From an uncultured virus (IMG/VR IMGVR_UViG_3300031247_000001) (Duplodnaviria > Heunggongvirae > Uroviricota > Caudoviricetes), in the IMG/VR virus record IMGVR_UViG_3300031247_000001: a stretch of 20,000 bases of DNA; one strand, given 5' to 3'. How positions within the stretch are numbered: the first letter of the stretch is position 1; every line of letters starts with the position of its first letter. The position numbers and the translations under genes are program-made. Shown in pieces: positions 1 through 18,180 of the stretch. The notes under the pieces are model-generated. The model saw only the letters and a list, made by a program, of their open reading frames with translations, did not search any database and was not told the DNA's origin.

Positions 1-112
1 TCGGTCTCTCTCGTGGTTGTTTCACGCCGCACCAATTAAAAATGCGGGCGCCACTCTCCGGAGCCGACGCCGCGCCGGAATTCCGCAACTTTCCACCCCT
101 CGCCCCAAAAAC

Positions 113-142
113 TTGAGCCGCACCCGAAAGGCAGGGTAGTCT
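113..142 (+). promoter_or_regulatory. sigma70-like promoter (TTGAGC-N18-TAGTCT) upstream of the collagen-like fibre gene
   Basis: -35 at 113-118 and -10 at 137-142, preceded by AAAAAC. The same geometry recurs at five other intergenic sites in the window. Confidence 0.55.
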
Positions 143-243
143 CGCCCCACTAGGTCGGTTTGGGCTCGGGCTGCTGCCCGCAGGCAAACGGGACGATCGA
201 GCGGCGCGCAGATTTGCGCTTTCCCTCGGAGCGTCCCTTGACC

Positions 244-3200: not shown

Positions 3201-5565
3201 CTCAGGCGGCGGAGCTCAGGGCGCACAAGGCGCTCCCGGCGTCGCTGGATCGCAAGGCTTCCAGGGCGCGACGGGCGCAAGCGGCGGCGCGGGCTTCCAG
3301 GGCGCGCAAGGCGCCTCCGGGCCGCAGGGCTTCCAGGGCGGCCTCGGTCAGGGCGGCGCGCAGGGATCGCAGGGTCGTCAAGGCGCGACCGGCACCGCGG
3401 GCGCCGCGGGCACGCAAGGCTTCCAGGGCGCGCAGGGCGGCGGCTTCCAAGGCGCCCAGGGCGCGCAGGGTCAGACGGGTCCGGGCGGCGGCTCGCAAGG
3501 CGCGCAGGGCGCGACGGGCGTGCAGGGCTTCCAGGGCGCGCAGGGCTTCCAGGGTGGCGGCTTCCAGGGCGCCACCGGATCGCAGGGCGCGACCGGCACG
3601 CAAGGCTTCCAGGGCGCGCAGGGTTTCCAAGGTGGCGGGTTTCAAGGCGCGCAGGGTGCAACCGGCGTGCAGGGCTTCCAAGGCGCGCAGGGTTTTCAAG
3701 GCGGCGGCTTCCAAGGGGCCACCGGATCGCAGGGCGCGACCGGCACGCAGGGCGGCCAGGGCGCGCAAGGCGCGACCGGCGCTGGCACGCAGGGCGCGCA
3801 AGGCGCGACCGGTACGCAAGGCTTTCAAGGCGCGCAGGGCTTTCAAGGCGGCGGCTTCCAAGGCGCCACCGGATCGCAAGGCGCGACGGGCACGCAGGGA
3901 TCGCAAGGCGCGCCCGGATCGGGATCGCAAGGCGCGCAGGGCGCAGCGGGCACGCAGGGCTTCCAGGGCGCGCAAGGTCGACAGGGGAGCACCGGCACGG
4001 CAGGCACCGCTGGCGCTCAAGGCGCGCAGGGTAACACGGGCGCGACCGGCACGACGGGCGCGCAGGGCGCCTCTGGCCCGGCGGGCGTGCAAGGCTTTCA
4101 AGGTGGCGTCGGCCCCGGCGGCGCGCAGGGATCGCAGGGTCGCCAAGGCGCAACCGGCGTGCAAGGCGCGGTCGGCCCGCAGGGATTCCAAGGCGCGACG
4201 GGCGCCGGCACGCAGGGCGCGCAGGGTCGCCAAGGCTTCCAGGGCGCCGCGGGCGTGCAGGGCGCCCAGGGCTCGTCGGTGGCGCCGCTCACGCAGGTCT
4301 TCTACGTCGACTCCAAGAATACGGGCGCCGCGAACGGCTCCATCCAGGCGCCCTTCGCGTCGATGACGGCGGCGCTCGCTGTGGTGCCTCTCAATGTGCC
4401 GACGACGTTCTTGGTGACGCCGCACACGTACGCCGAGACGATCACGATTACTAACGCGCAGGCGGACATCACCATCGTTGGGCTCGGGCCGCCGACGGAT
4501 CAGTCGGTGATCTTCACCGGCGCGTGCCATGCGTCGTTCTTGTCGTCGGACTCGACGCTCACGCTCCAAAACATCCTGGTTGAGGGCGCGCTCACCGAGA
4601 CTTCTGCTTCCGATCTCGGCACGACCTTCGCGCTCGTCGACACGCACATCGGCGGCAACGTCACCGGCACCGGCTCGAACGTCGGCAGCACCAAGCTTCG
4701 GATGGGCTCGGCCCTCCCGTACGAAAGCGGCAGCGGCACCGGCGTAGTGATCGACGGCGACCTCACGACCTTCGAGCAGGTGCTCGCAGAGAACGCCAGC
4801 ATCGCGAATTTCGCCGGCCCAACCGCCGACAATCAGCAGTTCGCGAACCGCTTTACCAACTGCTACTTCGGCTCCGCAAACCTCGGGGGCCCATCGATCT
4901 GCGAGGGCTGCGTCTTCCCAAGTGGACTGGCCTCAGCGGCGTCCTCGACCACCGCGAGCTACCTCACGGACTGCGTCATCGACGGCGACATGCTGTCATC
5001 GACGGGCCACTCGCTTTATGTAAACGGGGGCCTCATCGGAGCGGGCGCCCCCATCCCGCCCCTCGCGCTCAATTGGCACGGGATCGTCAATTTCCGAAAC
5101 ACCCTCTTCGGTCCGTTTTCTAGCGGTCACGTCGCAATCACGGCGCCGCTCACGACCCTCCAGCTCGACAGCGCGAGTGAGCGAAGTCTCTTTTCGACGA
5201 CCGGAGGCAAGGCGACGCTCTCGGCGGATTCGGTCGGGATCTACGCGCTCGATCAGGGAGAGTCGGATGCGGTGCAACTCGCGGACTCGTCCTCGGGATA
5301 CGGCGTCGCTGGGATCGGTCGGCTGTTTCTGCCGTCGACCAAGCTCACGGCCGACCGCACGATTCAGTTGGCGGCGGGCGGCGGGTCTGGGCTCGATATG
5401 CTGCCGCTCGATGTCTACGGCACCAACGGTCACACGCTGACGGTGCAGTTCAATTCGGTGACCATCAAAACGATCGTTAGCTCGCACGTGCCCGCTCGGT
5501 ACTTCTTCCAAGTATCAGAAGACAACACGGTCGTGGTTTACATCGGAGTGGAGAGCTTCCAATGA
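244..5565 (+). CDS. Collagen-like (Gly-X-Gln) fibre/spike protein with two putative pectin-lyase-like beta-helix domains, ~1773 aa
   Basis: Long ORF; ATG at 244 (GGAG upstream) preferred over TTG 160. GXQ repeat blocks at ~466-1725 and ~3133-4275. Globular regions begin with [23 protein letters not shown] and [26 protein letters not shown], the motif that typically precedes parallel beta-helix domains, and are followed by N/C/G-rich beta-strand sequence. Confidence 0.85.
466..1725 (+). repeat. Collagen-type 9-bp codon repeat block 1 (Gly-X-Gln), including a 117-bp (39-aa) higher-order unit
   Basis: GAQ/GFQ/GTQ/GVQ triplets. The unit starting [31 protein letters not shown] occurs at ~667 and ~784, with variants later. 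Confidence 0.9.
3133..4275 (+). repeat. Collagen-type repeat block 2
   Basis: Same GXQ triplets, with recurring [23 protein letters not shown] units. Confidence 0.9.
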
Positions 5566-5954
5566 GTGACTTTCGAGCTGGGCCCTGGACGCTACCGATC
5601 CCCCGGTTTCTCAATCTGCACACGACCGGGCTCTCGGCGCCCGTCTCGATCAACGCCCCCGTCGTCACGCCGGTCGGGCTCTACCGGGTGTCGATGAGCA
5701 TCGCGATCACGACCGCGGGCTCCGCCGGGCAGCTCATCATGTCGGTGGTGAGTAACGGCGAGGGCGGATCTTCCCAGATACAGTCGCTCGCGGCGGTCAG
5801 CGTCAATACGCTCGGCGATCTCGCCCAGGATGCGTTCGTGGTCGATGTCGCCTCTGCCAACGTATCCTACAAGGTGGACGGCGTAGGGCTCACCGCGGGC
5901 TCGCTCAAGTACGCCATCCGGCTCGTCATCGAGCAGATCTCGGCGCTCCCCTGA
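5562..5954 (+). CDS. Small beta-rich protein, probable virion or fibre-associated protein (130 aa)
   Basis: ATGA overlap with the fibre gene stop. Alternating hydrophobic pattern ([22 protein letters not shown]) suggests a beta-sandwich. Confidence 0.7.
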
Positions 5955-5986
5955 AACGTGTGACATCGGGACTGCCCGGCAAAAAC

Positions 5987-6016
5987 TTGCGCGCACACCG
6001 AGTCCTCCGATAGCCT
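5987..6016 (+). promoter_or_regulatory. sigma70-like promoter (TTGCGC-N18-TAGCCT)
   Basis: Intergenic and preceded by AAAAAC, as at 113. The -10 is flanked by an inverted repeat CTCCGA...TCGGAG. Confidence 0.55.
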
Positions 6017-6054
6017 CGGAGAGTCATGCATTCATTCACCCGTAGGGATTGCCG

Positions 6055-6408
6055 ATGGCCATGAGCAACGAGCAGATGCTTGACCAGATTGCGGGCCTCA
6101 TCGCGGAGTCTCGGGTCGAGTTCCGGCAAGCCATCTCAGACCTCGAGCTCGAAATCAGAACCGGCTTTTCTGGGGTCAGGAAAAATCAGATCGTCCAGGA
6201 AGCCAAGCTCGATAGCCTCGAGTGGGAGTTCGATGAGTTGAAGAAGGTGCTGAAAGCTCAGGATCAGGCGCTCGATGGTCTGACGCAGCTCGGCAAGACC
6301 AACTTCGACATGAATGAGTCGATCCTGAAGGCGATCCACGGTGAGTCGGGATCGGTCACAATTAGACATGGCGCAACTGAAGAGAGCAGCGGGGCTAACC
6401 CCCAGTAG
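6055..6408 (+). CDS. Coiled-coil hypothetical protein (~117 aa)
   Basis: AGGGA RBS before ATG 6055 (alternative 6061). Heptad-like LDSLEWEFDELKKVLKAQDQALDGL. Confidence 0.7.
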   Translation: MAMSNEQMLDQIAGLIAESRVEFRQAISDLELEIRTGFSGVRKNQIVQEAKLDSLEWEFDELKKVLKAQDQALDGLTQLGKTNFDMNESILKAIHGESGSVTIRHGATEESSGANPQ

Positions 6409-6763
6409 CCCTACGGTGCTCTTGGTAGATGACGATGATCGGTACCTCGATTCACTCGCCAGGTTCTTGGAGGGAGACTCCGCGCGTCTCCTTCGTGCGC
6501 GGTCAGGGCTCCACGCACTCGAGCAACTGAAAACCGAAACCGTGTCGCTCGTGGTGAGCGACTATTGGATGCCCGGGATGGACGGCGTGCAGCTACTCGA
6601 CGAGGTCATGCGTCTCTACCCGAGAGTTGGCCGAGTGCTGCTCACGGGCAGGCCCGACGCAGACATCGTGCTCGACTCGACGCGCCATCGGTTGCTCGTC
6701 AAGGGCATGGAGCCCGATTTGATTCGGCGGGTGATCCTGCGGGAGGCTCGTCGCCATGGCTAA
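6368..6763 (+). CDS. Stand-alone CheY-like response regulator receiver domain (~131 aa)
   Basis: VLLVDDD acidic pocket, LVVSDYWMPGMDG (phospho-Asp), LLTG (conserved Thr) and LVKG (conserved Lys); no output domain. Start uncertain (ATG 6368 vs 6341). Confidence 0.9.
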   Translation: MAQLKRAAGLTPSSPTVLLVDDDDRYLDSLARFLEGDSARLLRARSGLHALEQLKTETVSLVVSDYWMPGMDGVQLLDEVMRLYPRVGRVLLTGRPDADIVLDSTRHRLLVKGMEPDLIRRVILREARRHG

Positions 6764-7514
6764 CGACGATCGCTCGCGACCGACGCGGCCTCCGCTTCAG
6801 CGCGAAGAGGACTCGCCCCCGGGTCAGTATCGCGAGCCCGGGCGACCGATCCCTGAGGCGATCGGGAAAATCGCGCTTCGTGCGCCCCGGGTGACGGTGC
6901 CAAGTCAGCACGAAGAAGTGCTCCGCGCATTGGCCTCTACCGAAGGTCGGATGCTCGCCGAGATGAGCGATCTGCGTGACGAAGAACAAGCCCGTCAGAT
7001 CGCTCGCCAGCAGGCCTTCGAGGATGAGATCCGGAGCTCGCTTCGGGAGCTCGTCGTGCGCGAGGTGCGGTCGATCCCGCCGCCACCCGCGGAGCCAAAG
7101 AAGCGCTTTGAATGGGCGCACCTGCAGTACGTGGCGGCCTTCGTCGTGGCCCTGACCGGGCTCATCGCGCTCATCCTGGGCGCGCAAAAGCCGAGCGCCG
7201 AGGTCACCAAGCGCTTCGATGAGATCGACAAGAAGCTCGATCTCAGTAGCTCAAAGCTCGAGGCGCACATCGAAGCGGAGTCCGCGCAGCGATCGGCAGA
7301 CCGCGAGCAGGACTACAAATACAACTTGGACGTGCGGAGCTGGGTCACGGACGTGCTCGAGCGTGCGGCGAGCGTGAAGATCGACGATCCGCCGGGCACG
7401 CCGAAGCGCGACCAGCTCGGCTTCTACCCAGCGCCGCGCATTGACTCGCACAAGATCACCGACACCCACATCGTGCAACCGCGCGATCCCTATCCCGTGC
7501 CTCCGCCACCCTGA
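6756..7514 (+). CDS. Single-pass membrane protein with flanking coiled coils (252 aa)
   Basis: Hydrophobic segment YVAAFVVALTGLIALILGAQ, helical charged regions on both sides, Pro-rich termini; overlaps the upstream stop. Confidence 0.75.
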   Translation: MANDDRSRPTRPPLQREEDSPPGQYREPGRPIPEAIGKIALRAPRVTVPSQHEEVLRALASTEGRMLAEMSDLRDEEQARQIARQQAFEDEIRSSLRELVVREVRSIPPPPAEPKKRFEWAHLQYVAAFVVALTGLIALILGAQKPSAEVTKRFDEIDKKLDLSSSKLEAHIEAESAQRSADREQDYKYNLDVRSWVTDVLERAASVKIDDPPGTPKRDQLGFYPAPRIDSHKITDTHIVQPRDPYPVPPPP

Positions 7515-7524
7515 GAGAAAGCCC

Positions 7525-7992
7525 ATGCAAGAGCTCACCGATCTTTACCAAAGCCTCGTGACCCGGAACTGGTTTGCCGTTGCGGCCTTTACGATCATGC
7601 TCGGCATCCAGATCGGAAAGACCACCGTGGGGTCCGAGCTCTACGCCAAGATCCCGAACGGCTACCGCTTCCTCGTGCCGGTGCTGCTCGCGTCGGGGAC
7701 GGCGTTCGTGCATGGTTTCGCGGCGCACGAGAGCCTCGGGGCCTCGGTGTTCGATGCGATGAAGATCGCGCTCGGGGCCATGGGGGGAGCTGCGGCCCTG
7801 AAGGAGTCGCCGCTGCCGTGGGGAGGCGGCCCAGGGGGAACGCCCGCGCCGAAGAAGGGCCAGGCGACGGCGCCCGCCCGGCGCGCGTCGCCGCCCTTCC
7901 CTGGGCTTCGTGATGCAGATCTCGACGACGATGACAAGACGCCGGTCGACAGAAAGCCGCCTCCGCCGAGCGATCCCCCGTCCGCCGCCTGA
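7525..7992 (+). CDS. Putative holin-like multi-pass membrane protein (~155 aa)
   Basis: ATG 7525 after GAGAG. Two to three hydrophobic segments (WFAVAAFTIMLGIQI; FLVPVLLASGTAFV; AMKIALGAMGGAAAL) and a charged Pro-rich C-tail. The holin role is inferred. Confidence 0.55.
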   Translation: MQELTDLYQSLVTRNWFAVAAFTIMLGIQIGKTTVGSELYAKIPNGYRFLVPVLLASGTAFVHGFAAHESLGASVFDAMKIALGAMGGAAALKESPLPWGGGPGGTPAPKKGQATAPARRASPPFPGLRDADLDDDDKTPVDRKPPPPSDPPSAA

Positions 7993-7995
7993 GGC

Positions 7996-8025
7996 TTGCC
8001 TTTCACGTAGGGCAAGTGGTACTTT
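7996..8025 (+). promoter_or_regulatory. sigma70-like promoter (TTGCCT-N18-TACTTT), 11 nt before ATG 8037
   Basis: Intergenic; overlaps the inverted repeat CTTGCC...GGCAAG. Confidence 0.5.
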
Positions 8026-8036
8026 TCTCCCCAGCC

Positions 8037-8474
8037 ATGAGCCAATACGACGAGGACCTCCCCGACCAGAACTTTGGCGCGCTTGGGGGGCTCGGGACCG
8101 AGGCCTTCGAGAAGATCACCAATTCCGTTGCCCCCGACGGGCTCCATACTCGGTGCTACTGCGAATTTTGCGGCACCAAGAACGAAATCATCTCGAGCTG
8201 GCCCGAGGTCATCGTCGGCTCCCTCTCGCTCGTGCCGCCCGACTGGTACGTGGACCGAGGCAATGGCGCGCTCTATCCGCGCGTCGGCTGCGCCAACAAC
8301 GGCTGTCGTCGCGAGATCGGCATTCGCTACGCCCCGCAGGAGCTCGCCCGCTACGTCGCCTCGGGGCTCGGGAGCAACGTCGTCTACCTTGCGCCCAATC
8401 AGCCGCCCGCTACTCCGCAGCAGGTGGAAGGGTTTAAGCAGCAGATGCTCCAGGCGGCTGGCGGTCGGCGATAG
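8037..8474 (+). CDS. Hypothetical Cys-containing, putative Zn-binding protein (~145 aa)
   Basis: CYCEFC and GCANNGC Cys clusters; coding-like GC3 bias. Confidence 0.7.
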   Translation: MSQYDEDLPDQNFGALGGLGTEAFEKITNSVAPDGLHTRCYCEFCGTKNEIISSWPEVIVGSLSLVPPDWYVDRGNGALYPRVGCANNGCRREIGIRYAPQELARYVASGLGSNVVYLAPNQPPATPQQVEGFKQQMLQAAGGRR

Positions 8475-8480
8475 GGATTG

Positions 8481-9065
8481 ATGACGAAGCGAGCGACGGC
8501 TCGGTCGGTGCCGCCGCCGGCCCCCCCAGAGCGAGGGCAGTGCCTCCCGCGCGTGGAGGAAGAGCCCCTCAGCGCTGAAGAGGCGTACGTCGTCCTCGAG
8601 CCTTACTTCGAAGTGGTCCGCGAGGAGTACCTCGCTCAGGGCTTCAAGAAGTGTAAACGCACGCGTCTCTTCATCGCGCCCGCGATGCACGACTCGCCGC
8701 GCCACTTTGGCGCCTGCAAAGACGATGGGTCTGCGATCTTGCTCGCCCCCGAGCTCGCGGACGTGGCCGACACCGTGATGCTCGCGATCATGGCGCACGA
8801 GTTTGGGCACGCGACCGATTTCCTCTACCCGGGCGAGTTTGTGCTCGGGCGGAGTGGCCCGGCGCTGCGGCGGCAGCGCGCGGAGGTCGAGGAAAAGCAG
8901 TGGAGCAAATGGCTGAAAGCCTGGCACCGCCGCGACGAAGACGTGGTGGAGATCACGGCGGACGCCATCGCTGAGCGCGTGATGGGGGTGCCCTACGGCT
9001 ACCAGGGACCCTGCTGGATCCAAAGCTTTGACGCCGCAGAAGCGCGGCCCATGGGACTCCGATGA
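8481..9065 (+). CDS. Zincin-like metallopeptidase (HExxH), ~194 aa
   Basis: IMAHEFGHATD motif plus downstream EITADAIA (ExxAD third-ligand helix), as in M48/ImmA-IrrE-type zincins. Confidence 0.7.
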   Translation: MTKRATARSVPPPAPPERGQCLPRVEEEPLSAEEAYVVLEPYFEVVREEYLAQGFKKCKRTRLFIAPAMHDSPRHFGACKDDGSAILLAPELADVADTVMLAIMAHEFGHATDFLYPGEFVLGRSGPALRRQRAEVEEKQWSKWLKAWHRRDEDVVEITADAIAERVMGVPYGYQGPCWIQSFDAAEARPMGLR

Positions 9066-9277
9066 CCGACGAATCTCCGCAAACGTTTCCGACCATCGAA
9101 GCAGTCATCGCAGCTCACATCCGCTCGGTGCTCATCGCTACCCGTTGGAACTGCTCCGAATCCGCCCGGATCCTCGGCATCGATCGGCGCACGATCTACA
9201 GGCAGATCGCGCGCTACAAGATCGAGCGACCCCCGGAAGAGAAAAGCCCCGCGCCGAGCTCGGCCTGCGGGGAGTAG
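9062..9277 (+). CDS. Stand-alone Fis-type (HTH_8) DNA-binding protein (71 aa)
   Basis: TIEAVIAAHIRSVLIATRWNCSESARILGIDRRTIYRQIARY matches the C-terminal HTH of NtrC/Fis proteins. ATGA overlap with the upstream gene. Confidence 0.85.
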   Translation: MTDESPQTFPTIEAVIAAHIRSVLIATRWNCSESARILGIDRRTIYRQIARYKIERPPEEKSPAPSSACGE

Positions 9278-9288
9278 ACTTCTCTCGC

Positions 9289-9990
9289 ATGCCAGTGGCA
9301 GCGCCTGAACAGCGCGGAAGTAACCCGCGTCCCGGTGACGATCCCAACGAGGTCGTCAAGCAGTGGACGCCGCTCGTGAAGATGCTGGCGCGCTCGTACA
9401 GTAAGCACCTCGGTCGCTGGTACGAGTTTGATGATCTCGTCGCGATTGGTCAGGAGGCGCTCTGGGGGTGCATTTCGTATTGGAGAGAAGACGGCGGCGC
9501 CATCTTCAAGACCTTTGCGTACCATGCGATCGTGCATCGGTTTGAGGCGATCAAAAAGTACTGGAGGAGCAACAAGCGTCGGGGGTCGATCTACTCTGAC
9601 AGCATCGAAGACCCCGGCGAAGGTCGCCCGCGGACCGAGCTCAGCATCGAGGCCGATGACCAGGCGCTCGATCACCAGCGCGCTCTCTCGGGCCTCCGGC
9701 AAGCATTTGGTGGGCTACAGCCCCGCGAGGGTTACGTGCTAGAGGAGCGCTTCCTCGGCGATCGGTCTCTAAAAGAAGTCGGGCAGGCGCTCGGGGTTTC
9801 CCGGGAGCGGGCGCGTCAACTCGAGCGGCGCGGGCTCCAGAAATTGCGGAGATCGCTCATGGAGATCATCCCGGAGCTCCGGGATGCGCCTCCGGTCTCG
9901 AGCGGAGCCAGGGCCCGCTCGAGGACGGACGCCGAGGTGGGGCGCTGCAATCAGCAGCGCGCCCGACGAAAAGTTGCCCTCGGGCCCTGA
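9289..9990 (+). CDS. RNA polymerase sigma-70 family factor (FliA/SigB-like; regions 2 and 4), ~233 aa
   Basis: Region 2: PLVKMLARSY...FDDLVAIGQEALW...FKTFAYHAI. Region 4: LQPREGYVLEERF...SLKEVGQALGVSRERARQLERRGLQKLR. Confidence 0.9.
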   Translation: MPVAAPEQRGSNPRPGDDPNEVVKQWTPLVKMLARSYSKHLGRWYEFDDLVAIGQEALWGCISYWREDGGAIFKTFAYHAIVHRFEAIKKYWRSNKRRGSIYSDSIEDPGEGRPRTELSIEADDQALDHQRALSGLRQAFGGLQPREGYVLEERFLGDRSLKEVGQALGVSRERARQLERRGLQKLRRSLMEIIPELRDAPPVSSGARARSRTDAEVGRCNQQRARRKVALGP

Positions 9991-10002
9991 GTCACGTAGG
10001 CT
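9974..10002 (+). promoter_or_regulatory. sigma70-like promoter (TTGCCC-N17-TAGGCT), 7 nt before ATG 10010 (leaderless candidate)
   Basis: Matches the recurring motif; no SD before ATG 10010. Confidence 0.55.
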
Positions 10003-10009
10003 TTTGTCT

Positions 10010-10636
10010 ATGGCTGACGCGCCGAAGAAGCAAAAGCACCCGTATGGAGCGATGTTCTGGGGGGTGCTGGGCCTCGCCGCGGCTTTCCGCGCGCTCTATC
10101 ACCCTTGGCGAGTCCTGGTGAAGGACGGGTTTGCATCGCGCTGCTCGGGCGACGGGTCGTGCGATCCGTCGATGACGGTTACGTCCTTCCAGGGTCAGAC
10201 CGAGGTCTACTGCCCGGTGCGCGGCGTCGTCGTATCCCAGAAGCCCGGGCGCCTCTTGATCGTGCCGGACGACGAGGCCGTCGTGCTCGAGTACAACGGA
10301 GATCCGGCGACGTTCTTGACGCAACTCGTGGCGGGCGCGCCCGTCGGCGCGGGTCAACAGATTGGGCTCGCGAGTCAATTCACTTTCGCGGTCTGGACGC
10401 TCGGTCGCACGACGACCGGCAGCCCGCAGATGGGCGCCGCCATCGAGCCCGCATCGTGGCTCACGACGCACGGCGCGAAGATCAGCGCCAAGTACCACGT
10501 GCCGAGCCCGCAGGCCGCCTGGTGCTCCACGGGTCGAAAGCTCGTCGCGCCCCAGACGATCGCGAGCCAATGCGGCACGGTGCTTCCGGCGCCGAGCGGC
10601 TACGCGCTCCTGCCGACCTCCGTCACGATGGGGTAA
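10010..10636 (+). CDS. Membrane-anchored degenerate M23/LytM-like protein (~208 aa)
   Basis: N-terminal TM (AMFWGVLGLAAAFRALY). TEVYCPVRGVV...LVAGAPVGAGQQIG...FTFAV...IEPASWL follows the M23 pattern, but the Zn-ligand histidines are absent. Confidence 0.6.
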   Translation: MADAPKKQKHPYGAMFWGVLGLAAAFRALYHPWRVLVKDGFASRCSGDGSCDPSMTVTSFQGQTEVYCPVRGVVVSQKPGRLLIVPDDEAVVLEYNGDPATFLTQLVAGAPVGAGQQIGLASQFTFAVWTLGRTTTGSPQMGAAIEPASWLTTHGAKISAKYHVPSPQAAWCSTGRKLVAPQTIASQCGTVLPAPSGYALLPTSVTMG

Positions 10637-10639
10637 GCC

Positions 10640-10864
10640 GTGGCGTCGGGCTCGGATCTCAATGAGCTATTTGCCCATGAGCTTGGGGCAGATCTCAACG
10701 GCGATCCGGAGCTCCGCTACGAGGTCACCGAGACGCGTGCGACGCTGCGCGAGTGGGTGGCTGAAAAAGTGCGCGAGCAGACCGATAGCGATGAGATGTC
10801 GCGCGCGGTGAAGCGATTCATTCGGGCGCGCCTGAGCGTCTCCAAGGTCATGGAGTTTTTCTGA
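10640..10864 (+). CDS. Small hypothetical protein (74 aa)
   Basis: GTG start 3 nt after the upstream stop; TGATG coupling to the next gene. Confidence 0.65.
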   Translation: MASGSDLNELFAHELGADLNGDPELRYEVTETRATLREWVAEKVREQTDSDEMSRAVKRFIRARLSVSKVMEFF

Positions 10865-11205
10865 TGCTCGGCGTGGCCACCACGAGCCCAACGCCGATGC
10901 CCGCGATCAGCTCGGGCACGCAAGAGCTCATTGCGTATGGCTTGCTCCTCGGCGGCGCCGTCGTCGTCGGCAAACTCATGATCGATGGGCTCGTGGGCGA
11001 CATGGACGCCGCGAAGGCAAGGAGGGAGTTCATTGGGCCGGTGTACGAGCCGCCGAAGCCGCCCAGGGATTTGCACGTGCAGCTGAGTGACGTGGTGAAG
11101 TTTCTGGCCATGAGCGCGAGCGTGTACTCGCTCATTGCGGAGCTGCCGACGCTCGTGAGCCAATGGGGCTCGGTCGAGGCGCAGATCGAGAATTTGGTGA
11201 AGTGA
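10864..11205 (+). CDS. Hypothetical membrane protein (113 aa)
   Basis: TM segment LIAYGLLLGGAVVVGKLMI; TGATG overlaps at both ends. Confidence 0.7.
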   Translation: MLGVATTSPTPMPAISSGTQELIAYGLLLGGAVVVGKLMIDGLVGDMDAAKARREFIGPVYEPPKPPRDLHVQLSDVVKFLAMSASVYSLIAELPTLVSQWGSVEAQIENLVK

Positions 11206-11603
11206 TGCGACTCACCGATGAATGGTTTGAGGCTCAGTTTTACGGGGAGGCGACCGCCAAGGGTCATCGTTATTTGCCGAGCATCGAAGGAGCGCAGGGA
11301 CTCTTCCTCTGGTGTCCTTGCGGCTACGGCAAGGCGGAGTTTCCGCTCGATGGAGGACGCCCGCACGGCGTCATGGTCCCCTTCTCGACCCCCCGCAATG
11401 CCCCGGAGCTTCCGTCGGATCATGGCCCACAGTCGGCGGCCAACCCCGATGGTCCGCGGCCGCGCTGGGCAATGACCGGGACGAGCCTCGAAGATCTCTC
11501 GACGACGCCGTCGGTCGCGGTCGGCGGCAGGCCCGCGCAGGGTGACAAGCCTGCGGTGCCGCCCTGCTGGCACGGGTACATCACCGGTGGTGAGGTCACA
11601 TGA
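11205..11603 (+). CDS. DUF6527-like Cys/His protein (~132 aa)
   Basis: LWCPCG...PH...RWAMTG...LSTTPSV...CWHGYITGGEV resembles the DUF6527 signature (recognised from memory). TGATG and ATGA coupling. Confidence 0.65.
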   Translation: MRLTDEWFEAQFYGEATAKGHRYLPSIEGAQGLFLWCPCGYGKAEFPLDGGRPHGVMVPFSTPRNAPELPSDHGPQSAANPDGPRPRWAMTGTSLEDLSTTPSVAVGGRPAQGDKPAVPPCWHGYITGGEVT

Positions 11604-12352
11604 GCAAGATGAGCTATGCCGAAGCGCGCGCCTACGTGAGCCAAGCGTTTATCGAGGAAGAGGGCCGTCCGGGCGCGCGCTCGGAGCTTCAGTGCCTCCA
11701 AGGGATCGGCGATCTCGAGACGGGCTTCGGATCGACTTGGACGGGCCCGGGCATCGGCAGCTTCAACATGGGCGCGATCCAGAAGGGCGGCTGGACGGGA
11801 GCGGTCTTCAGCTACACCGACACGCACCCCAATCCTGATGGCACGAGCACGCCCTACACGATCGATTTTCGGAAGTACGCGTCGGCGACCGATGGCTTCA
11901 AGGATCTGGCCAAGGTCGTCTACGACGCCTTCGAGATCAGGCGCGAGGCGCTTGCCTGCGCGAGCCGCGGGGATATTTTGGGGTTCTCGACGGCGCTCCA
12001 CACGCCTCCGGTCTACTACGAAGGCTTCGGTGCCACCGACCAGGAGCGCATCGCTCACCACTACAATGCGGTCCTCGCGAGCATCCAGCGGCAGTGCGCG
12101 GCGCTCGGCGAGCCCATGCCGACCCTCGAGCCGCTCCCTGTCATCGCGCCGGCGCTCTTCATCGGCTGCACGGGCGAGGCCGTGAAGGTTTGGCAGAAGA
12201 TCGTGGGCGCCAAGCCCGAGGATGGGATCTTCGGGGGCGGCACGCAGACAGCCACGCGTGTCTGGCAAAAGGCGCACGGCTTGCCCCAGAGCGGCATCGT
12301 GACGCAGGCGGAGCTCGTAGCGGCGGGGCTCGCGCCATCATCGTCAGCGTGA
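11600..12352 (+). CDS. Putative endolysin: GH73/glucosaminidase-like catalytic domain plus C-terminal peptidoglycan-binding domain (250 aa)
   Basis: LETGFG (catalytic Glu), FNMGAIQ, FRKYAS..DGFKD, FSTAL..YYEG. The C-terminal LFIGCTGEAVKVWQ...DGIFGGGTQTATRVWQKAHGL..SGIV matches PG_binding_1. Confidence 0.8.
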   Translation: MSKMSYAEARAYVSQAFIEEEGRPGARSELQCLQGIGDLETGFGSTWTGPGIGSFNMGAIQKGGWTGAVFSYTDTHPNPDGTSTPYTIDFRKYASATDGFKDLAKVVYDAFEIRREALACASRGDILGFSTALHTPPVYYEGFGATDQERIAHHYNAVLASIQRQCAALGEPMPTLEPLPVIAPALFIGCTGEAVKVWQKIVGAKPEDGIFGGGTQTATRVWQKAHGLPQSGIVTQAELVAAGLAPSSSA

Positions 12353-12925
12353 TTGAGATGCAATCTCAATCAAAAACTGAGCGAAAGCGATCGGGGTCGC
12401 GCTGGCCTCGCGTTTGCCCAAGGTGGGCTTAATGCGGTCAAACCAGCCGCACTGTGCTTCGCCCGGCAGCTGAAGCCATGACGGCGCGACCGGCTTTGCG
12501 ATTGAACAGGCAAAAAGCCAGGTGCGTTTTCTGGCCCGATGGCCATAGGCGCTTTGCCATACTTCGGTGGTCCACTCGCCCTCCGCAGCATTCTGCCAGC
12601 CGATCCCGAGTGGTCTCGGCAGCCCATGAGCAGCCCAAGCGCGCGACGAGGCCGGGTGCTCCAGCACGCCTCCGACTCTGCGCACGGTTGCGAGCGCGGC
12701 CGCAAAGCATCCCCCGTCATTGCCGGGGAGATTATGGTCGCCGCCGTAGCGTTTGAAATTCAAGCGCGCGATGTTTGTCCAAAGCTGGCAAGGCGGATGC
12801 GCGACTACCGGAAATAGTCCTGTGTATGTTCTGGCGTCCCGCGCTTGATCCCAGCACTGCTCTGCTCCGAGCAGTGCTGGGTAGATCCCGTCTGGATCGA
12901 CGAAGAGTGCTGCGACCTTCGTCAA
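12344..12925 (-). CDS. Short phage C5 DNA-cytosine-methyltransferase-like protein (193 aa)
   Basis: VAALFV start, PVVAHPPCQLW (motif IV PC), GGVLEHPASS (motif VI-like) and QSAYGHRARKRTWL (motif VIII-like). TTG start 7 nt after the upstream stop. Confidence 0.65.
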   Translation of the reverse strand: MTKVAALFVDPDGIYPALLGAEQCWDQARDARTYTGLFPVVAHPPCQLWTNIARLNFKRYGGDHNLPGNDGGCFAAALATVRRVGGVLEHPASSRAWAAHGLPRPLGIGWQNAAEGEWTTEVWQSAYGHRARKRTWLFACSIAKPVAPSWLQLPGEAQCGWFDRIKPTLGKREASATPIAFAQFLIEIASQSR

Positions 12926-12932
12926 GAGTGCG

Positions 12933-14297
12933 TCACCATGGCCGCTCCTTCAGCTGCGGGAACATCGCCATCGCCCGCAATCGATCGACCTCCCCGAGCT
13001 CTACCTGCCGCTCCTCGGCGGTGCGGTTTGATGCCCAGCTAGCTTGCAGGTTGTAGACGCTCAAGATCTGATAGATGCACGTGTAGCGCGCGCCCGCCAT
13101 CTCGAGCAGCGGCCACATGACGGCCTTGTCGATGGCGAGCGAGACCCAAGAGCCGTCGGGACGAAATAGGCAAGAAGGCGCGACGCCCGGACCGTTCGCG
13201 AGCTTCTTTGCTAGACCCGCCCGGAACGTCTTCAGGTGGGTCGCTCGCCAGTCCGAGTACCGCACGCGTGCGCCGAGCGCATAGGGAGCCGCAAACCCGA
13301 CCTCCCCATCGGAAAACATGAATTGTCCGTAGGTGAGCCAAGGCTCGGCCTTCGCGGCATAGGCGAGCGCCAAGACCTCGAGCGCGCGATCGTGCGCTAG
13401 CCAGTCGTCGCCATCGAGCCAGACGATGACTTCGTCGTCGGGGAGATCTTTCCAAACCGACCAGCAGTTTTCGAGCGCGGAGAGGCGCTCGGGGTTTCGG
13501 ATCACGGTGAGCTGCTGATCCGTTTCCATATTGAAGAGCGCGATCTCGCTCGTGCGGTCCTCGCTCTTGGCGTCGATGACGACGTGGGTGTAGTTCCGGA
13601 AAGTTTGATCGAGCACGCTGTCGAGGCACTTCTGGATCCAGCGCTCGGCGTTGAGCGCGGTCGACACGATCGTCATGTGCAGGGGCTTACCGCTCTTCAC
13701 GAGCACGCAGAAATTGTGGCGCCCCATCCAGTGCTGGGCCTGGTGCACCTCCATGAGTGAGCGGAGCTGCGCCGTGCGCGCCTCGTCCAGCGTCCATCCA
13801 TGAATGCGAAAGCGCGTGAGCCAGTACTCGGGCGGCTGCAAGTTGATGTGGCCCTCCCATTCCTGACCGGGCGCTGCCGCCGACCACACGATCACGTCCG
13901 TCGCGTGCACTGCGACATTTTCGACGATGGCGAGCGAATGCTGCTCGGAGATGTGCTCGGCCGTCTCGGTGCAGATCACGCAGGAATACTTGGCAACGGC
14001 GCCAGCCCCTTGCAGGGTTTGGGTCAAGTCAAACCGTTGCACCTCGACCCCCGGCTCGATCATCTCGATCGCGTGCGGCGAGTACTCCGCCCCGATCGTG
14101 CCCTCCCACCCGAGCTCGATCAGGCGAGCGGTCTGTAGGCCGATACCGCACCCGATGTCGAGGCAGCTCGGTTGCTGCCCGACTACCGCGTGGATGCAAT
14201 CGGCGAGCTTTCGGTAGTTGTCGCGGCACTCGCGCATTTGCTCGAAAAATGCCTGGTCATGCGGGTCTCGATTGGCTTGATTTTCAGTGTTTCCCAT
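12933..14297 (-). CDS. Class I SAM-dependent methyltransferase fused to a family 2 glycosyltransferase (454 aa)
   Basis: N-terminal CLDIGCGIG, ICTETAEHI and SAAAPGQEWEGHINLQ. C-terminal IVSTALNAERWIQKCLDSVLDQT...VVIDAKSED...VWLDGDD (DxD). Confidence 0.9.
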   Translation of the reverse strand: MGNTENQANRDPHDQAFFEQMRECRDNYRKLADCIHAVVGQQPSCLDIGCGIGLQTARLIELGWEGTIGAEYSPHAIEMIEPGVEVQRFDLTQTLQGAGAVAKYSCVICTETAEHISEQHSLAIVENVAVHATDVIVWSAAAPGQEWEGHINLQPPEYWLTRFRIHGWTLDEARTAQLRSLMEVHQAQHWMGRHNFCVLVKSGKPLHMTIVSTALNAERWIQKCLDSVLDQTFRNYTHVVIDAKSEDRTSEIALFNMETDQQLTVIRNPERLSALENCWSVWKDLPDDEVIVWLDGDDWLAHDRALEVLALAYAAKAEPWLTYGQFMFSDGEVGFAAPYALGARVRYSDWRATHLKTFRAGLAKKLANGPGVAPSCLFRPDGSWVSLAIDKAVMWPLLEMAGARYTCIYQILSVYNLQASWASNRTAEERQVELGEVDRLRAMAMFPQLKERPW

Positions 14298-14305
14298 TGC
14301 GTGAG

Positions 14306-14334
14306 ACAGTAGCGTGCTATCTTCGGGAAGGAAA
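14306..14334 (-). promoter_or_regulatory. Candidate leaderless promoter (TTTCCT-N17-TACTGT), 8 nt before ATG 14297
   Basis: -10 TACTGT at 14311-14306; weak -35; no SD. Confidence 0.35.
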
Positions 14335-14371
14335 GCCGAAAGCCCGCAGTAGCACGGGGGAGGAGATCGCC

Positions 14372-15130
14372 ATGAAGAGTTTGTTTTTGGTTTGCCTCAT
14401 CGTCGCCATGACTGCCTGCGGCGCGCCGTTCACGGCGGAGTCGTTTACCGATAGCGGGAGCGCCGGTGCCATCGGGGCTCCGGCGGCACCGAGCGCAGGC
14501 GCGGCCGGCGCCGAGCCGCGCGAGGATGCCGGCGGAGCGACGAGCATCCCGCTCGAGTCAGCTGGCGCCGCCGGCGCCGCCGGCGCGCCTGACCTAGGCT
14601 CCGCCGGCGCGCCGAGCGTCGACCCGCCGCCGCTCTACACGCCGCCCCCGTGCTCCACCGACCAGAACGTCACCGGCGGCTACGACGGATCGCTCAGCGC
14701 CGCCCCTGCCTGCCTCCGCACCAAGGAGGCCCTCAACACCGTTGCTTGTGCCAACTGGGACGGGCGATCGATCACCGTCAACGGCGCCGCGGCGACCTGC
14801 GGCGTCCCGCTCTCCTTCCCGGAGAGCGTCGATGGCTTCACGTACATCGATCTCGGCCCGGGGACGAGCTCTGGCGTCGCGCTCCGGTGGTTTTTGACAG
14901 CGCCCGCCCCAAACCCCTGCGACGCGCGTTGGTGGACCCAGGGCGACCTCTACGCCCCGAACGAAATCATGCTCGATGTCTGCGACGCGCCCGGGAGCGA
15001 AAAGAGCTGCGAGCTCGGCAAGACCTACGCCTTCTCGTGCCTCGACACCCCGACCAGCCGGTGCACCAGCACGGGGCCCGGCGCAAGCGGCTGGACTTCG
15101 AGCTGGGCGCTGGTTACCCTCTGCAAGTAA
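14372..15130 (+). CDS. Cys-rich lipoprotein, myxobacterial style (~252 aa)
   Basis: GGAGGAG RBS; signal peptide MKSLFLVCLIVAMTA|C (lipobox); G/A/P-rich linker; multi-Cys extracellular domains. Confidence 0.85.
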   Translation: MKSLFLVCLIVAMTACGAPFTAESFTDSGSAGAIGAPAAPSAGAAGAEPREDAGGATSIPLESAGAAGAAGAPDLGSAGAPSVDPPPLYTPPPCSTDQNVTGGYDGSLSAAPACLRTKEALNTVACANWDGRSITVNGAAATCGVPLSFPESVDGFTYIDLGPGTSSGVALRWFLTAPAPNPCDARWWTQGDLYAPNEIMLDVCDAPGSEKSCELGKTYAFSCLDTPTSRCTSTGPGASGWTSSWALVTLCK

Positions 15131-15356
15131 AGGCAGCGCGACGCCTACGGAAGTCGCGACCACGCGGTGCTGGGGCAAAGGGAGCTCGGCCCCTACGGAA
15201 GCCGAGACAAGCCATGACCGAGAAACGACCGCCAGGGTTTAGACAAGTGCAAAGGGAGCTCGGCCCCTACGGAAGCCGAGACAAATCCTGCCGGGCGGCT
15301 ACCTGGCCTATCTCGACACGGTGCAAAGGGAGCTCGGCCCCTACGGAAGCCGAGAC
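15125..15356 (-). CRISPR. CRISPR mini-array without adjacent cas genes: three 36-bp repeats plus one diverged repeat; spacers of 38, 38 and 12 nt
   Basis: Plus-strand repeat GTGCAAAGGGAGCTCGGCCCCTACGGAAGCCGAGAC at 15321-15356, 15247-15282 and 15173-15208 (1 mismatch). Diverged copy at 15125-15160 (27/36). Unique spacers at 15283-15320, 15209-15246 and 15161-15172. Minus orientation is inferred from the 9-bp G-U-containing hairpin and from degeneracy at the low-coordinate end. Confidence 0.88.
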
Positions 15357-15390
15357 CTGCTAGGTTTGCGAGGGGGCTAGCGGCCAGAAT

Positions 15391-15420
15391 TTGACTTCGG
15401 ATCCGGTACCCGGGTAGCCT
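15391..15420 (+). promoter_or_regulatory. sigma70-like promoter (TTGACT-N18-TAGCCT), 8 nt before ATG 15429 (leaderless candidate)
   Basis: Near-consensus -35; overlaps the palindrome TACCCGGGTA (15407-15416); lies in the presumed CRISPR leader region. Confidence 0.6.
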
Positions 15421-15428
15421 CTCGTTCA

Positions 15429-15809
15429 ATGGCCGTTGCAATTGGATCCCGCGTCGCGCTCAAGACTCTTGGACAAGGTCTGGCCATCGGCCAGGTGACC
15501 GCTCAGCCGCCCGTCTTTGGCGTGTCGCAGACGGCCTCCCCGGGCCCTTGCGTCATCGACTGGGAGAACGGCGCTCAAGCCACGGTGCCGCTCGCGGTGC
15601 TGGACGAACTCCTCGGGGCCAACCCGACTACGCTCGGTCTCATCGGGCAGGTCGTCAACGTCGAGGGGCAGTCGGCGGCGTACAATGCCCTCGTGGTCGA
15701 TGCCTACAACCGCAACGGCACTCAAGAGCTCGTGCTCGTCAAGACCCTAAACAACGGGACGTACTTCGAGCTCGACGCCACCACCGTCGTCCCGCAACCG
15801 AACCTCTGA
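15429..15809 (+). CDS. Hypothetical beta-rich protein, possibly tandem SH3-like barrels (126 aa)
   Basis: Two similar halves (IGSRVAL...VIDWENG; IGQVVNV...VKTLNNG); promoter immediately upstream. Confidence 0.7.
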   Translation: MAVAIGSRVALKTLGQGLAIGQVTAQPPVFGVSQTASPGPCVIDWENGAQATVPLAVLDELLGANPTTLGLIGQVVNVEGQSAAYNALVVDAYNRNGTQELVLVKTLNNGTYFELDATTVVPQPNL

Positions 15810-16794: not shown

Positions 16795-16819
16795 ACGAGT
16801 GATAGTAGCCAACTGTCTC

Positions 16820-17680
16820 ATGGAGATCCAGCCCGAAGAATTCCCGTGCGCGCAATGCGGAAAAGGTTTTCCAAAAGGAGCATTCGTCGGTAAGCGAGGC
16901 CAGCTGATCCGCACCTGCGTCGGGTGCCGCGAGCTCTACTCCGGGGACTACGGCATCCGTGGATCGGTGCCGCGTCGCTTGCTCCGCGTGGTGTCGCCGA
17001 CCGGCCAAGCGCGGGTCACCTGGATCCCGAAGAGCGGCAATAAGAAGCTCGGCGGCATCCCGGCGTCAATCGTCTCGCCCGAGACCTGCCCGCCGTCGTG
17101 CGGCTTCTACGGCAAGGGCTGCTACGCGGAGTTCGGGGCCTCAGGCCATCATTGGCGGAACGTCGAGCACAATGGCATCGAGTGGGGAGATTTTCTCGCC
17201 TGCGTCAGCGCCCTGCCGAAGGGACAGCTCTGGCGCTACGCCGTCGCCGGAGATCTCCCGGGACAGGGAGAAGAGGTCGATCTCCGCGCGCTGTCCGATC
17301 TCGTGCGAGCAAACCAGGGCAAGCGCGGGTTTGCGTTTACGCACAAGGCGGTCACTCGCAGCAATGATCTGATGCTCCTTTCGGCCAACGCGATGGGCTT
17401 CACCGTCAACCTCTCTGCCGACACGCTCGAAGAGGCCGACCAGAAAGCGCGCTTCGGGCTCCCCGTCGCCGTCGTGCTGCCCGAGCACGCGTCCGGCGAC
17501 ATCCGCACGCCCGAAGGCCGCCGCGTCGTCATCTGCCCGGCGCAGCTGCGCGACGACATCACGTGCGCGTCGTGCCAGCTCTGCAGCGTGAGCTCGCGCA
17601 AGGGCATCGTGGGGTTCCGGGCGCACGGGCAGATGAAGAAGACCGTGTCGAAGATCGCAGAGGGAACAAAGATCGCATGA
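16820..17680 (+). CDS. Cys-rich phage protein, GP88/DUF7227-like (radical-SAM-like), with N-terminal Zn ribbon (~286 aa)
   Basis: CAQC...CVGC N-terminus; KSGNKKLG, TCPPSC..YGKGCYA, WRYAVAGD, FTVNLSAD, ICPAQ..ITCASCQLC and VGFRAHG motifs. Family name recalled, not searched. Confidence 0.65.
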   Translation: MEIQPEEFPCAQCGKGFPKGAFVGKRGQLIRTCVGCRELYSGDYGIRGSVPRRLLRVVSPTGQARVTWIPKSGNKKLGGIPASIVSPETCPPSCGFYGKGCYAEFGASGHHWRNVEHNGIEWGDFLACVSALPKGQLWRYAVAGDLPGQGEEVDLRALSDLVRANQGKRGFAFTHKAVTRSNDLMLLSANAMGFTVNLSADTLEEADQKARFGLPVAVVLPEHASGDIRTPEGRRVVICPAQLRDDITCASCQLCSVSSRKGIVGFRAHGQMKKTVSKIAEGTKIA

Positions 17681-18180
17681 CGCAATGGTTTTTGGATACG
17701 GAGTTCGATGAGGACGGGAAAACGATCGAGCTCATCTCGATCGGTCTCGTCTCCGACGAGGGCCACGAATACGAAGCGGTGAGTCGGGAGTTCGATCCGC
17801 TGCATTGCAACGAATGGGTGCGCGAAAACGTGCTCGGAAAGCTCCCGCCTCCGGGCGATTCGCGCTGGAAGACGCGCGCCCAGATCCGGGGAGAGATCAC
17901 AGCGATCGTGCTCGCGGGTAGCTCGACTGCGCCGAAGTTCTACGGGTACTACGCCGACTACGATTGGGTCGTGCTCTGCCAGCTCTTCGGCAGGATGGTG
18001 GACTTGCCACCAGGGTTCCCGAGGTACTGCCGAGATCTGAGGCAGATGCTCGACGACTATGACAACCTTCGGAAAAGCGATCTGCCCGTGCAGCCCGAGG
18101 GCACCGAGCACAGCGCGATCGATGATGCGCGCTGGGTACGCGATAGCGTGCTCTGGATCCAGAAGTGGTGTAACCGGTGA
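17677..18180 (+). CDS. DEDDh 3'-5' exonuclease, Rv2179c/RNase AS (DUF5051)-like (167 aa)
   Basis: FLDTEF (ExoI), LISIGLV, WVRENVL, YYADYDWVVLCQLFG (ExoII), CRDL and HSAIDDARW (ExoIII); ATGA overlap. Confidence 0.88.
   Translation: MTQWFLDTEFDEDGKTIELISIGLVSDEGHEYEAVSREFDPLHCNEWVRENVLGKLPPPGDSRWKTRAQIRGEITAIVLAGSSTAPKFYGYYADYDWVVLCQLFGRMVDLPPGFPRYCRDLRQMLDDYDNLRKSDLPVQPEGTEHSAIDDARWVRDSVLWIQKWCNR

Follow-up and report, generated by a model that had tools for sequence, protein, structure and literature searches.

A probable cas-distal side array of a subtype V-M (Cas12m) CRISPR system in an uncultured phage

Described V-M systems and the array of the window

The described subtype V-M systems of short palindromic repeats that are clustered and regularly interspaced (CRISPR) compared here are those of MmCas12m2, GoCas12m, MsCas12m, and PmCas12m (PMC10442227, PMC11013384, bioRxiv 10.64898/2026.03.26.714355), and their carriers are plasmids. 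The element reported here is a short CRISPR array carried by a large phage, IMG/VR record IMGVR_UViG_3300031247_000001 (Caudoviricetes). The stretch of this record that was analyzed is 20,000 nucleotides (nt) in length and is referred to as the window. The array and a diverged repeat in front of it span positions 15125-15356 of the window. Together they are probably a V-M-type side array that lies away from the effector gene of a DNA-binding Cas12m system encoded by the phage, and they would hold extra guides against rival elements.

Cas12m variants whose triads are D-E-D, H-D-D, or N-D-D are all reported to bind DNA without cutting it (PMC11013384), and MsCas12m of Allomeiothermus silvanus was characterized in the same paper. 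In the CRISPR RNA (crRNA) of Cas12m2, a 36-nt scaffold that derives from the repeat precedes the guide on its 5’ side, and the 3’ strand of a helix in this scaffold occupies positions -8 to -3. Behind this helix, A(-2) and C(-1) are read by the protein, and the heteroduplex is 17 base pairs (bp) long (PMC10442227). The PmCas12m crRNA is composed of a 33-nt repeat part and a 17-nt guide, and the protospacer-adjacent motif (PAM) of this system is YTN. A trans-activating crRNA is not needed in the published V-M systems.

V-M systems borne by phages are not new. They are mentioned for prophages in a 2024 review, and Virus Rctr197k (KX853510), which carries one, was already in GenBank. A 2026 preprint describes the myxophage MV-1, with a Cas12m of 610 amino acids (aa) and an adjacent 8-spacer array, which it terms the first in a phage (bioRxiv 10.64898/2026.09.14.751636). 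A keyword search of the literature, which was short of a full survey, turned up no account of phage V-M side arrays that lie away from the cas gene. Two other kinds of array are close in form. These are the virus mini-arrays that use host Cas proteins (PMC11656645, citing Faure 2019 and Medvedeva 2019) and the regulatory mini-arrays and solitary repeats that occur near cas genes (PMC10120712).

The window array lies on the + strand at 15173-15356. It is composed of three 36-nt repeats with a 74-nt period and two unique 38-nt spacers, as read from the sequence and by a repeat finder. The 34-nt core of the repeats occurs three times in the window with 0 mismatches, and three core matches were reproduced in none of 200 dinucleotide shuffles of the window. 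By the generic criterion of at least three near-identical direct repeats of 23-50 nt with unique spacers of similar length, the element is a CRISPR array. The repeats differ at their 5’ start, which is GGG in repeat 1 and GTG in repeats 2 and 3. A first-pass annotation, made from the sequence alone, had described the same repeats, spacers, and period, and this layout stands. Its count of three was incomplete, as the repeat finder identified a fourth, diverged copy at 15125-15160 with 78% identity. This copy covers the TAA stop of the upstream open reading frame (ORF), and 12 nt separate it from repeat 1.

The window array is like the published V-M loci in its 36-nt repeat, in a 3’ hairpin followed by AC, and in a second helix that pairs the 5’ part of the repeat with the loop. 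Its repeat aligns with that of the MsCas12m array, its relatives are without Cas1 and Cas2, and the effector of its relatives matches Cas12m structures. Unlike the published loci, it stands apart from any effector gene. The effectors also differ, being ~540-620 aa in the published systems and 425-530 aa in the relatives of the window, where RuvC-I has N and RuvC-II has E in all 22 aligned proteins. MV-1, which was compared by its description, and Rctr197k are alike in having a V-M effector and an array on a phage genome without adaptation genes. Confident protospacers were not found for MV-1 either. MV-1 differs in its D-E-D triad, its 610-aa effector, and the single, gene-adjacent array described for it. 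Relative to MV-1 and Rctr197k, the window feature would be an additional array at a distance from the effector gene, and it is headed by a diverged repeat.

Repeat family, transcribed strand, and RNA fold

Relatives of the repeat were sought in metagenome contigs with a tolerant two-copy scan anchored on one 11-mer, in which the anchor letters are fixed by construction and divergent 5’ parts are missed by design. The scan returned 107 loci. Six have repeats that are 5 mismatches from the window repeat, and the next best has 12 differing positions. One repeat variant forms arrays of 13 repeats (L040) and 14 repeats (L048) on a single 127-kb contig, and the L048 array recurs in other assemblies as loci L043 and L078. 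This contig shares with the window a collagen tail fiber (59% over 292 aa) and a glycosyltransferase. Elsewhere in the repeat family, arrays have at least 7 repeats in L080 and 5, 22, and 25 repeats in G001, G002, and G003, the related phage records described in the next section.

At L045/L080, a 459-aa gene lies upstream of the array in the same orientation, with 55 nt between the gene and the start of the array. The 459-aa protein matches solved Cas12m chains (23vw_A, E 5.5e-31; 23vu_A, E 3.6e-11; 8hhl/8hio, E ~5.6e-8). Locus L045 is phage-like, with a minor tail protein (E 1.2e-35) and an excisionase-type helix-turn-helix domain, and no significant tail fiber match links it to the window phage. 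Repeats identical to that of the window at 31-32 of 36 positions lie downstream of Cas12m-like genes in L045 and in the viral locus L117, the repeat of L117 being 32/36 identical. A 902-aa gene beside the L040 array was considered as an effector and rejected, as it encodes a coiled-coil protein without Cas12 features.

Searches for the repeat in other collections were negative. The exact repeat had 0 matches in IMG/VR, and the two-copy 11-mer pattern was present there at 7 loci whose repeats are all unrelated (19-20 mismatches). A megablast of the surrounding 6 kb against GenBank phages gave 0 matches to the repeat. Neither the exact 34-nt repeat nor the two-copy family pattern occurred in 185,579 species genomes, among which the host may not be represented.

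Two annotated loci whose effectors are relatives of the 459-aa protein were used for comparison, L115 (pMESIL02 of Allomeiothermus silvanus, MsCas12m) and L116 (Rctr197k). The Rctr197k record contains a gene annotated as ‘similar to transposase’ upstream of an annotated CRISPR. In both loci the array is downstream of the effector gene and on the strand of the gene, and the repeat ends in ...CTGAGAC. Alignment A1 was constructed from 27 repeat variants of the window, L040, L080, L115, and L116. Eight of its columns are invariant, and nearly all variants terminate in GAGAC or a close variant. A 6-bp hairpin at the 3’ end is 92.6% paired, with covariation in four of the six pairs. A pseudoknot of columns 9-11 with columns 21-23 holds and covaries, as GGG/CCC in the window family, GCC/GGC in the MsCas12m repeats, and AGA/TCT in the Rctr197k repeats. 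Its pairs 9/23, 10/22, and 11/21 covary in 11, 8, and 16 of the 27 variants, respectively. The fourth pair tested, 8/24, follows standard pairing in no more than 8 of the 27 variants. The observed fold score was reached by 0 of 500 shuffles. With a 3’ helix that ends 2 nt before the spacer and a pseudoknot, the fold of the window repeat matches the published layout of the Cas12m2 crRNA.

The first-pass annotation had read the repeat on the minus strand, as a hairpin followed by 4 nt and an 8-nt tag recalling type I-G. The 9-bp minus-strand stem, with two G-U pairs, exists, and in pseudoknot-free folding it has a value of -13.9 kcal/mol versus -11.0 kcal/mol for the + strand. Its three inner pairs are confined to the window family and are not conserved in the wider repeat family, and two of the three are unpaired in all 8 MsCas12m variants. 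The conserved C residues are accounted for by the second helix. All 14 effector-linked arrays of the family (L045, L115, L116, and 11 IMG/VR loci) read opposite to the minus-strand reading and the repeats align with those of V-M systems, so the I-G-like assignment was set aside. The related loci showed no type I cas gene. In L040 and L080, the last repeats are degenerate and are at the 3’ end of the + reading.

As V-M repeats lie downstream of the effector gene and are co-oriented with it, with ...GAGAC on the gene strand, the + strand of the window array is therefore taken to be the transcribed strand. This is also the strand of the neighboring genes. From these comparisons of sequence, it is concluded that the window repeat is a member of the V-M (Cas12m) family of repeats, with the + strand as its reading strand.

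Between the diverged leading repeat and repeat 2 there are 9 differing positions, six of which form three compensatory pairs (A1 columns 11/21, 16/35, and 19/32) that keep both helices. The leading repeat is of the GGC/GCC pseudoknot class, which is the class of G002 and G003 and unlike that of the array behind it.

Related phages, their effectors, and spacer targets

The three best IMG/VR records (G001, G002, and G003) were searched with the window DNA, and G001 is the record behind L117. G001 is 110,728 bp in length and is estimated to be 82% complete. It is collinear with window positions 104-15356, with 66-78% nucleotide identity over the longer blocks, and it ends with an array at the position of the window array, directly after a lipoprotein homolog. 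The other end of G001 contains a Cas12m-like gene (452-1996, minus strand, 514 aa) and a main array of 5 repeats. G002 is 135,429 bp in length, has terminal repeats, and is estimated to be complete. It has most of the window genes at ~70% identity, and the blocks homologous to the left and right sides of the window are ~40 kb apart in it. A 488-aa Cas12m-like gene is present at 27479-28945 of G002 with at least 22 repeats, and a Cas12m-like gene is present in G003 as well. Profiles of Cas1 and Cas2 (PF01867 and PF09827) scored in control genomes and found nothing in the three related records, one of which is complete, as expected for V-M. The lineage of the array is one of ~110-135 kb soil phages that encode a ~490-515-aa Cas12m-like effector (RuvC N-E-D) and have the main array elsewhere.

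The syntenic array of G001 begins with a 36-nt leader-like element that resembles the leader of the main array. Behind it come a leading repeat that is diverged and belongs to the GGC/GCC class, a spacer of 16 nt, and six non-identical repeats with spacers of 35, 17, 21, 23, and 29 nt. None of the longer spacers is common to the window (two) and G001 (five). The diverged leading copies of the window and G001 both preserve both helices by compensatory changes. Given the syntenic array, the compensated leading repeats, and the lack of common longer spacers, the side-array locus is therefore old, with its RNA fold under selection and its spacer content turned over.

Short repeat units occur at other places in the lineage. 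On the minus strand of G002 at ~28950-29130, three V-M repeats with spacers of 15 and 25 nt lie directly before the start codon of the Cas12m-like gene. This arrangement resembles the regulatory mini-arrays of other CRISPR types. G003 contains solitary repeat units away from its main array at 27874-27907 and 11750-11783 (minus strand). One of these units covers a TAA stop, like the leading repeat of the window, and directly behind this same unit stand the first 14 nt of the last main-array spacer of G003.

The effector family was defined from the compact Cas12m-like protein P0002. A search of IMG/VR with this single protein found no relatives, and an NCBIfam scan of it gave nothing useful. Its 21 relatives, all of them metagenomic, are 425-509 aa in length and 37-57% identical to it. 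Alignment A2 contains these 22 proteins (P0002-P0023). In 22 of 22, the RuvC-I position is the N of an A(I/V)N(F/Y/L)GWR motif and RuvC-II is E. RuvC-III is the D of a DQD motif, and two CxxC pairs are kept. A2 thus represents a compact Cas12m-like subfamily with invariant N-E-D at the RuvC positions, which also has a conserved C-terminal AAE and members on contigs of up to 136 kb. The alignment was needed to find relatives in IMG/VR, where it identified 12 loci on viral contigs of 41-229 kb. In 11 of the 12, an array is directly downstream of the Cas12m-like gene. Two of these loci, L118 and L119, have GGC/GCC-class repeats. No match to the 22-protein profile was present in L040, L048, L078, or L043. 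Compact Cas12m-like proteins of this size (425-530 aa) may interest tool builders.

Run X1 contains 95% of the sampled words of the window stretch and is its likely source sample. The summed contig depth in X1 is ~114 over the repeats (15138-15371) and 14-17 on the flanks. Several contigs of X1 join the window repeat to other spacers, so further arrays with the exact repeat of the window exist in the sample. A 3,882-nt contig with a depth of 16.8, equal to that of the window phage, ends in the window repeat with 0 mismatches over 35 nt. Compared by eye, the 35 nt before the repeat on this contig match the Cas12m-proximal leaders of G001 and G002 at 25/35 positions each. This is a hint, not proof, that the phage of the window has a main array behind such a leader.

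For spacer targets, 84 spacers of the lineage were tested against 506,700 bases, and matches outside arrays were counted. The matches are listed in Table 1 and include the phages’ own genomes as well as related ones. The mismatches of self-matching spacers, often near the repeat-proximal end, would fit spacers taken from kin phages. The two matches of G001 spacer 3 to Cas12m-like genes could reflect kin-targeting of the effector gene of a rival, or self-tuning. A match of window spacer 2 to G002 (22/38, E 0.041 among 84 queries) was rejected as chance. The short spacers of the window, G001, G002, and G003 had no 17-nt match with up to 2 mismatches outside arrays, bar one unsupported hit in G002 (2 mismatches), and the 12-nt spacer of the window is too short for an informative target query. 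Spacers of 17-35 nt would be long enough as guides, because published V-M guides are ~17-20 nt, and the 12-nt spacer may not be.

Pfam and PHROGs were used to scan 26 ORFs of the window, which looks like phage DNA. No Cas family, including cas1 and cas2, was found among the 26. The start of the ORF upstream of the array is likely M42 at 14372, which gives the product a lipoprotein-like signal peptide. The lipoprotein-like signal, MKSLFLVCLIVAMTAC, was read by eye from the translation, and it agrees with the lipoprotein gene that the first-pass annotation placed before the array. The N-terminal modules of the tail fiber have paralogous copies in L048 and several in G001 and G002. Downstream of the last repeat, the sites GGATCC, GGTACC, and CCCGGG occur back to back at 15399-15419 in a block conserved in G002, and this is probably chance in G+C-rich DNA. 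Table 1 lists the features of the window.

Table 1. Features of the window and matches of lineage spacers (window positions unless another record is named)
Feature	Position	Strand	Basis or remark
1,801-aa collagen-repeat tail fiber	160-5565		Long G-X-Y tracts, tandem repeats of 117-198 nt
Stand-alone response-regulator receiver domain	6341-6763		Pfam/PHROGs
Sigma-70-type factor	9028-9990		Pfam/PHROGs
Weak glucosaminidase-like match (below Pfam cut-off) and peptidoglycan-binding domain	11600-12352		
Glycosyltransferase-methyltransferase	12933-14297	-	
Upstream ORF, 293 aa	14249..15130	+	No Pfam/PHROG family; TAA stop inside diverged leading repeat
Diverged leading repeat, GGC/GCC pseudoknot class	15125..15160	+	Repeat finder, alignment A1
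Short 12-nt spacer behind leading repeat	15161..15172	+	Partly conserved with 16-nt equivalent in G001
Repeat 1, GGG start	15173..15208	+	Sequence read, repeat finder
Spacer 1, 38 nt	15209..15246	+	Target searches without match
Repeat 2	15247..15282	+	5’ tail, pseudoknot strand AGGG, hairpin CTCGGC...GCCGAG, 3’ AC
Spacer 2, 38 nt	15283..15320	+	Target searches without significant match
Repeat 3 (last)	15321..15356	+	72 nt to ATG of next + strand ORF
Downstream ORF, 126 aa	15429..15809	+	Family-less; homologous block is 391-1149 of relative G002
DUF7227 protein	16799-17680		
3’-5’ exoribonuclease-like protein	17563-18180		
Match of G001 main-array spacer 3	Own Cas12m-like gene, residues ~37-49 (G001 1850-1886)		35/37
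Match of G001 main-array spacer 3	G002 Cas12m-like gene (28799-28835)		32/37
Match of G003 spacer	Own genome		34/36
Match of G002 spacer 5	Own genome		29/33
Match of G002 spacer 4	Own genome		Exact 20-nt stretch (26/40 overall)
Match of L048 spacer	G001		32/41
Match of G003 main-array spacer	10932-10966, inside ORF 10864-11205		25/35 (21/22 core); repeat-proximal 8 nt mostly mismatched

Interpretation as a probable side array

The reading of 15125-15356 as a side array of a phage-encoded Cas12m system has as its observed basis the array itself, the family to which its repeat belongs, a fold that is conserved, and the presence in relatives of the effector and of a syntenic array. It further supposes an effector on the phage’s own genome and an array that is expressed, processed, and directed at targets. 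The array would be transcribed with its + strand neighbors, probably by read-through from the lipoprotein gene, which is proposed because the window array is without the leader-like element that the main arrays have. The Cas12m-like protein of the phage would bind each repeat through the pseudoknot and the 3’ hairpin and trim the transcript. The products would be ~50-nt crRNAs with the repeat scaffold followed by a ~17-20-nt guide. The complex would then bind complementary, PAM-adjacent DNA without cutting it. Rival mobile elements, related phages being the most likely ones, would thereby be blocked in their transcription or replication. The first-pass annotation had proposed a role in conflict between mobile elements. 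This part of it is plausible, as spacers of the relatives match kin phages; for the window’s own spacers, no target was found.

Several observations weigh against this reading. Three Cas12m-like proteins were without significant match to the window by tblastn, and the 22-protein profile gave a best E of 0.57 against the six-frame translation of the window, with positive controls at 8e-173 (L045), 4e-63 (L115), and 3e-60 (L116). Together with the ORF scan, these results bear out the statement of the first-pass annotation that the 20 kb contain no cas gene. No recognizable cas or Cas12m-like gene is present within 10 kb of the L040 and L048 arrays, a span of ~42 of the 127 kb of that contig. The effector on this phage is thus suggested by its relatives and by one contig junction read by eye. 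The minus-strand hairpin is 2.9 kcal/mol more stable than that of the + strand when folded without pseudoknots. The leader-like element of the main arrays is absent from the window array, and neither strand of 14800-15800 yielded a sigma-70-like promoter. The phage encodes its own sigma-70-family factor, and promoters of its own may account for the lack of a sigma-70 consensus near the array. The window spacers matched GenBank phages with a best E of 0.1 and 0.5. They had 0 matches in IMG/VR (first 22 nt, exact) and either none or matches with E of at least 0.1 among PLSDB plasmids. They gave only chance matches of 12-13 nt at the related loci and no significant match in the related genomes. 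The four best protospacers of the relatives are preceded by TTC, CTC, TCC, and CGT, which do not agree on a PAM.

The first-pass annotation had explained the array by borrowing, in which a phage without an effector loads its crRNAs onto a Cas protein encoded by the host or a plasmid and so excludes competitors. The lack of a cas gene in the 20-kb window and the arrays of the related 127-kb contig without an effector nearby both speak for this. A resident plasmid could supply Cas12m, as V-M is described as strongly enriched on plasmids (PMC11656645). The array also resembles the mini-arrays described there, being a one- or two-spacer array on a virus without cas genes nearby, in a lineage whose spacers match related viruses. 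Those mini-arrays, however, have repeats identical to host arrays. For the window repeat no such host array came to light, as the exact 34-nt repeat and the two-copy family pattern were both absent from the 185,579 species genomes. A Cas12m-like gene with cognate repeats is present in G001 and G002, which are the closest relatives, and in run X1 the junction of leader and repeat is at the depth of the phage itself. Borrowing is considered very improbable, and the array is probably not an orphan, given that the relatives carry a cas gene elsewhere on the element. It is also unlikely, though this reading fits several features of the locus, that the array is an inert remnant, a decaying duplicate of the main array left by recombination and unexpressed or unused. 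It has only two spacers, for which no targets were found, no promoter was found in 14800-15800, and the leader-like element that G001 keeps at its syntenic array is missing. Fragments of arrays do move in this lineage, as illustrated by the solitary repeat of G003 with 14 nt of the last main-array spacer. A decaying copy would not be expected to have three repeats identical over 34 nt, nor to be found at the same position in G001, where the longer blocks have 66-78% nucleotide identity. Both helices of the diverged copies are kept by compensatory changes in both phages, which points to selection on the RNA.

Regulatory or decoy RNAs are the remaining use for such units, especially the leading unit with its short spacer. 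They would direct the non-cutting effector to genes of the phage itself or of the host, or titrate an effector, and would not serve as immune guides. As described in PMC10120712, regulatory mini-arrays and solitary repeats occur near cas genes. The lineage shows likenesses to them in its diverged repeats, its short or partial spacers, and the units before the effector gene of G002, where three repeats with spacers of 15 and 25 nt lie in the 5’ leader of that gene. Solitary repeats are present in G003, the Cas12m-like gene of G001 is matched at 35/37 by a spacer from the main array of that phage, and the leading repeat of the window is in the GGC/GCC class of G002 and G003, unlike the array behind it. 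The window unit differs from the described ones in that it is not adjacent to a cas gene and a matching promoter target was not found. Targets of the short spacers (17 nt, up to 2 mismatches) were likewise not found in the window, G001, G002, or G003 outside arrays, bar the unsupported hit. The two 38-nt spacers look ordinarily acquired and are wholly unlike the five of G001. A regulatory or decoy role for these units is quite unlikely. A variant of this idea is doubtful but has somewhat more in its favor. The side array would be a distinct working part of the phage Cas12m system and more than a store of spare guides, with the leading unit as a vertically inherited, hard-wired regulatory or decoy RNA. 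This unit joins a GGC/GCC-class repeat, of the class that the effectors of the rival-type phages G002 and G003 use, to a partly conserved spacer of 12-16 nt. This unit could engage the Cas12m of a competitor or tune that of the phage. The spacers behind it (two in the window, five in G001, none common) would turn over without a phage Cas1-Cas2.

The reading as a side array of a phage-encoded Cas12m system, if correct, corrects the tempting step from an orphan array to a phage that borrows host Cas proteins. Comparison of the repeat alone with effector-adjacent arrays is enough to show its subtype, which strand is transcribed, and what the effector is likely to be. The locus adds a lineage of ~110-135 kb soil phages with a compact, RuvC-altered Cas12m-like protein and arrays at more than one site. 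Spacers of this lineage would target kin phages, including the Cas12m-like gene of kin. The finding thereby bears on the use of non-cutting CRISPR systems in competition between phages and on how arrays change without adaptation genes.

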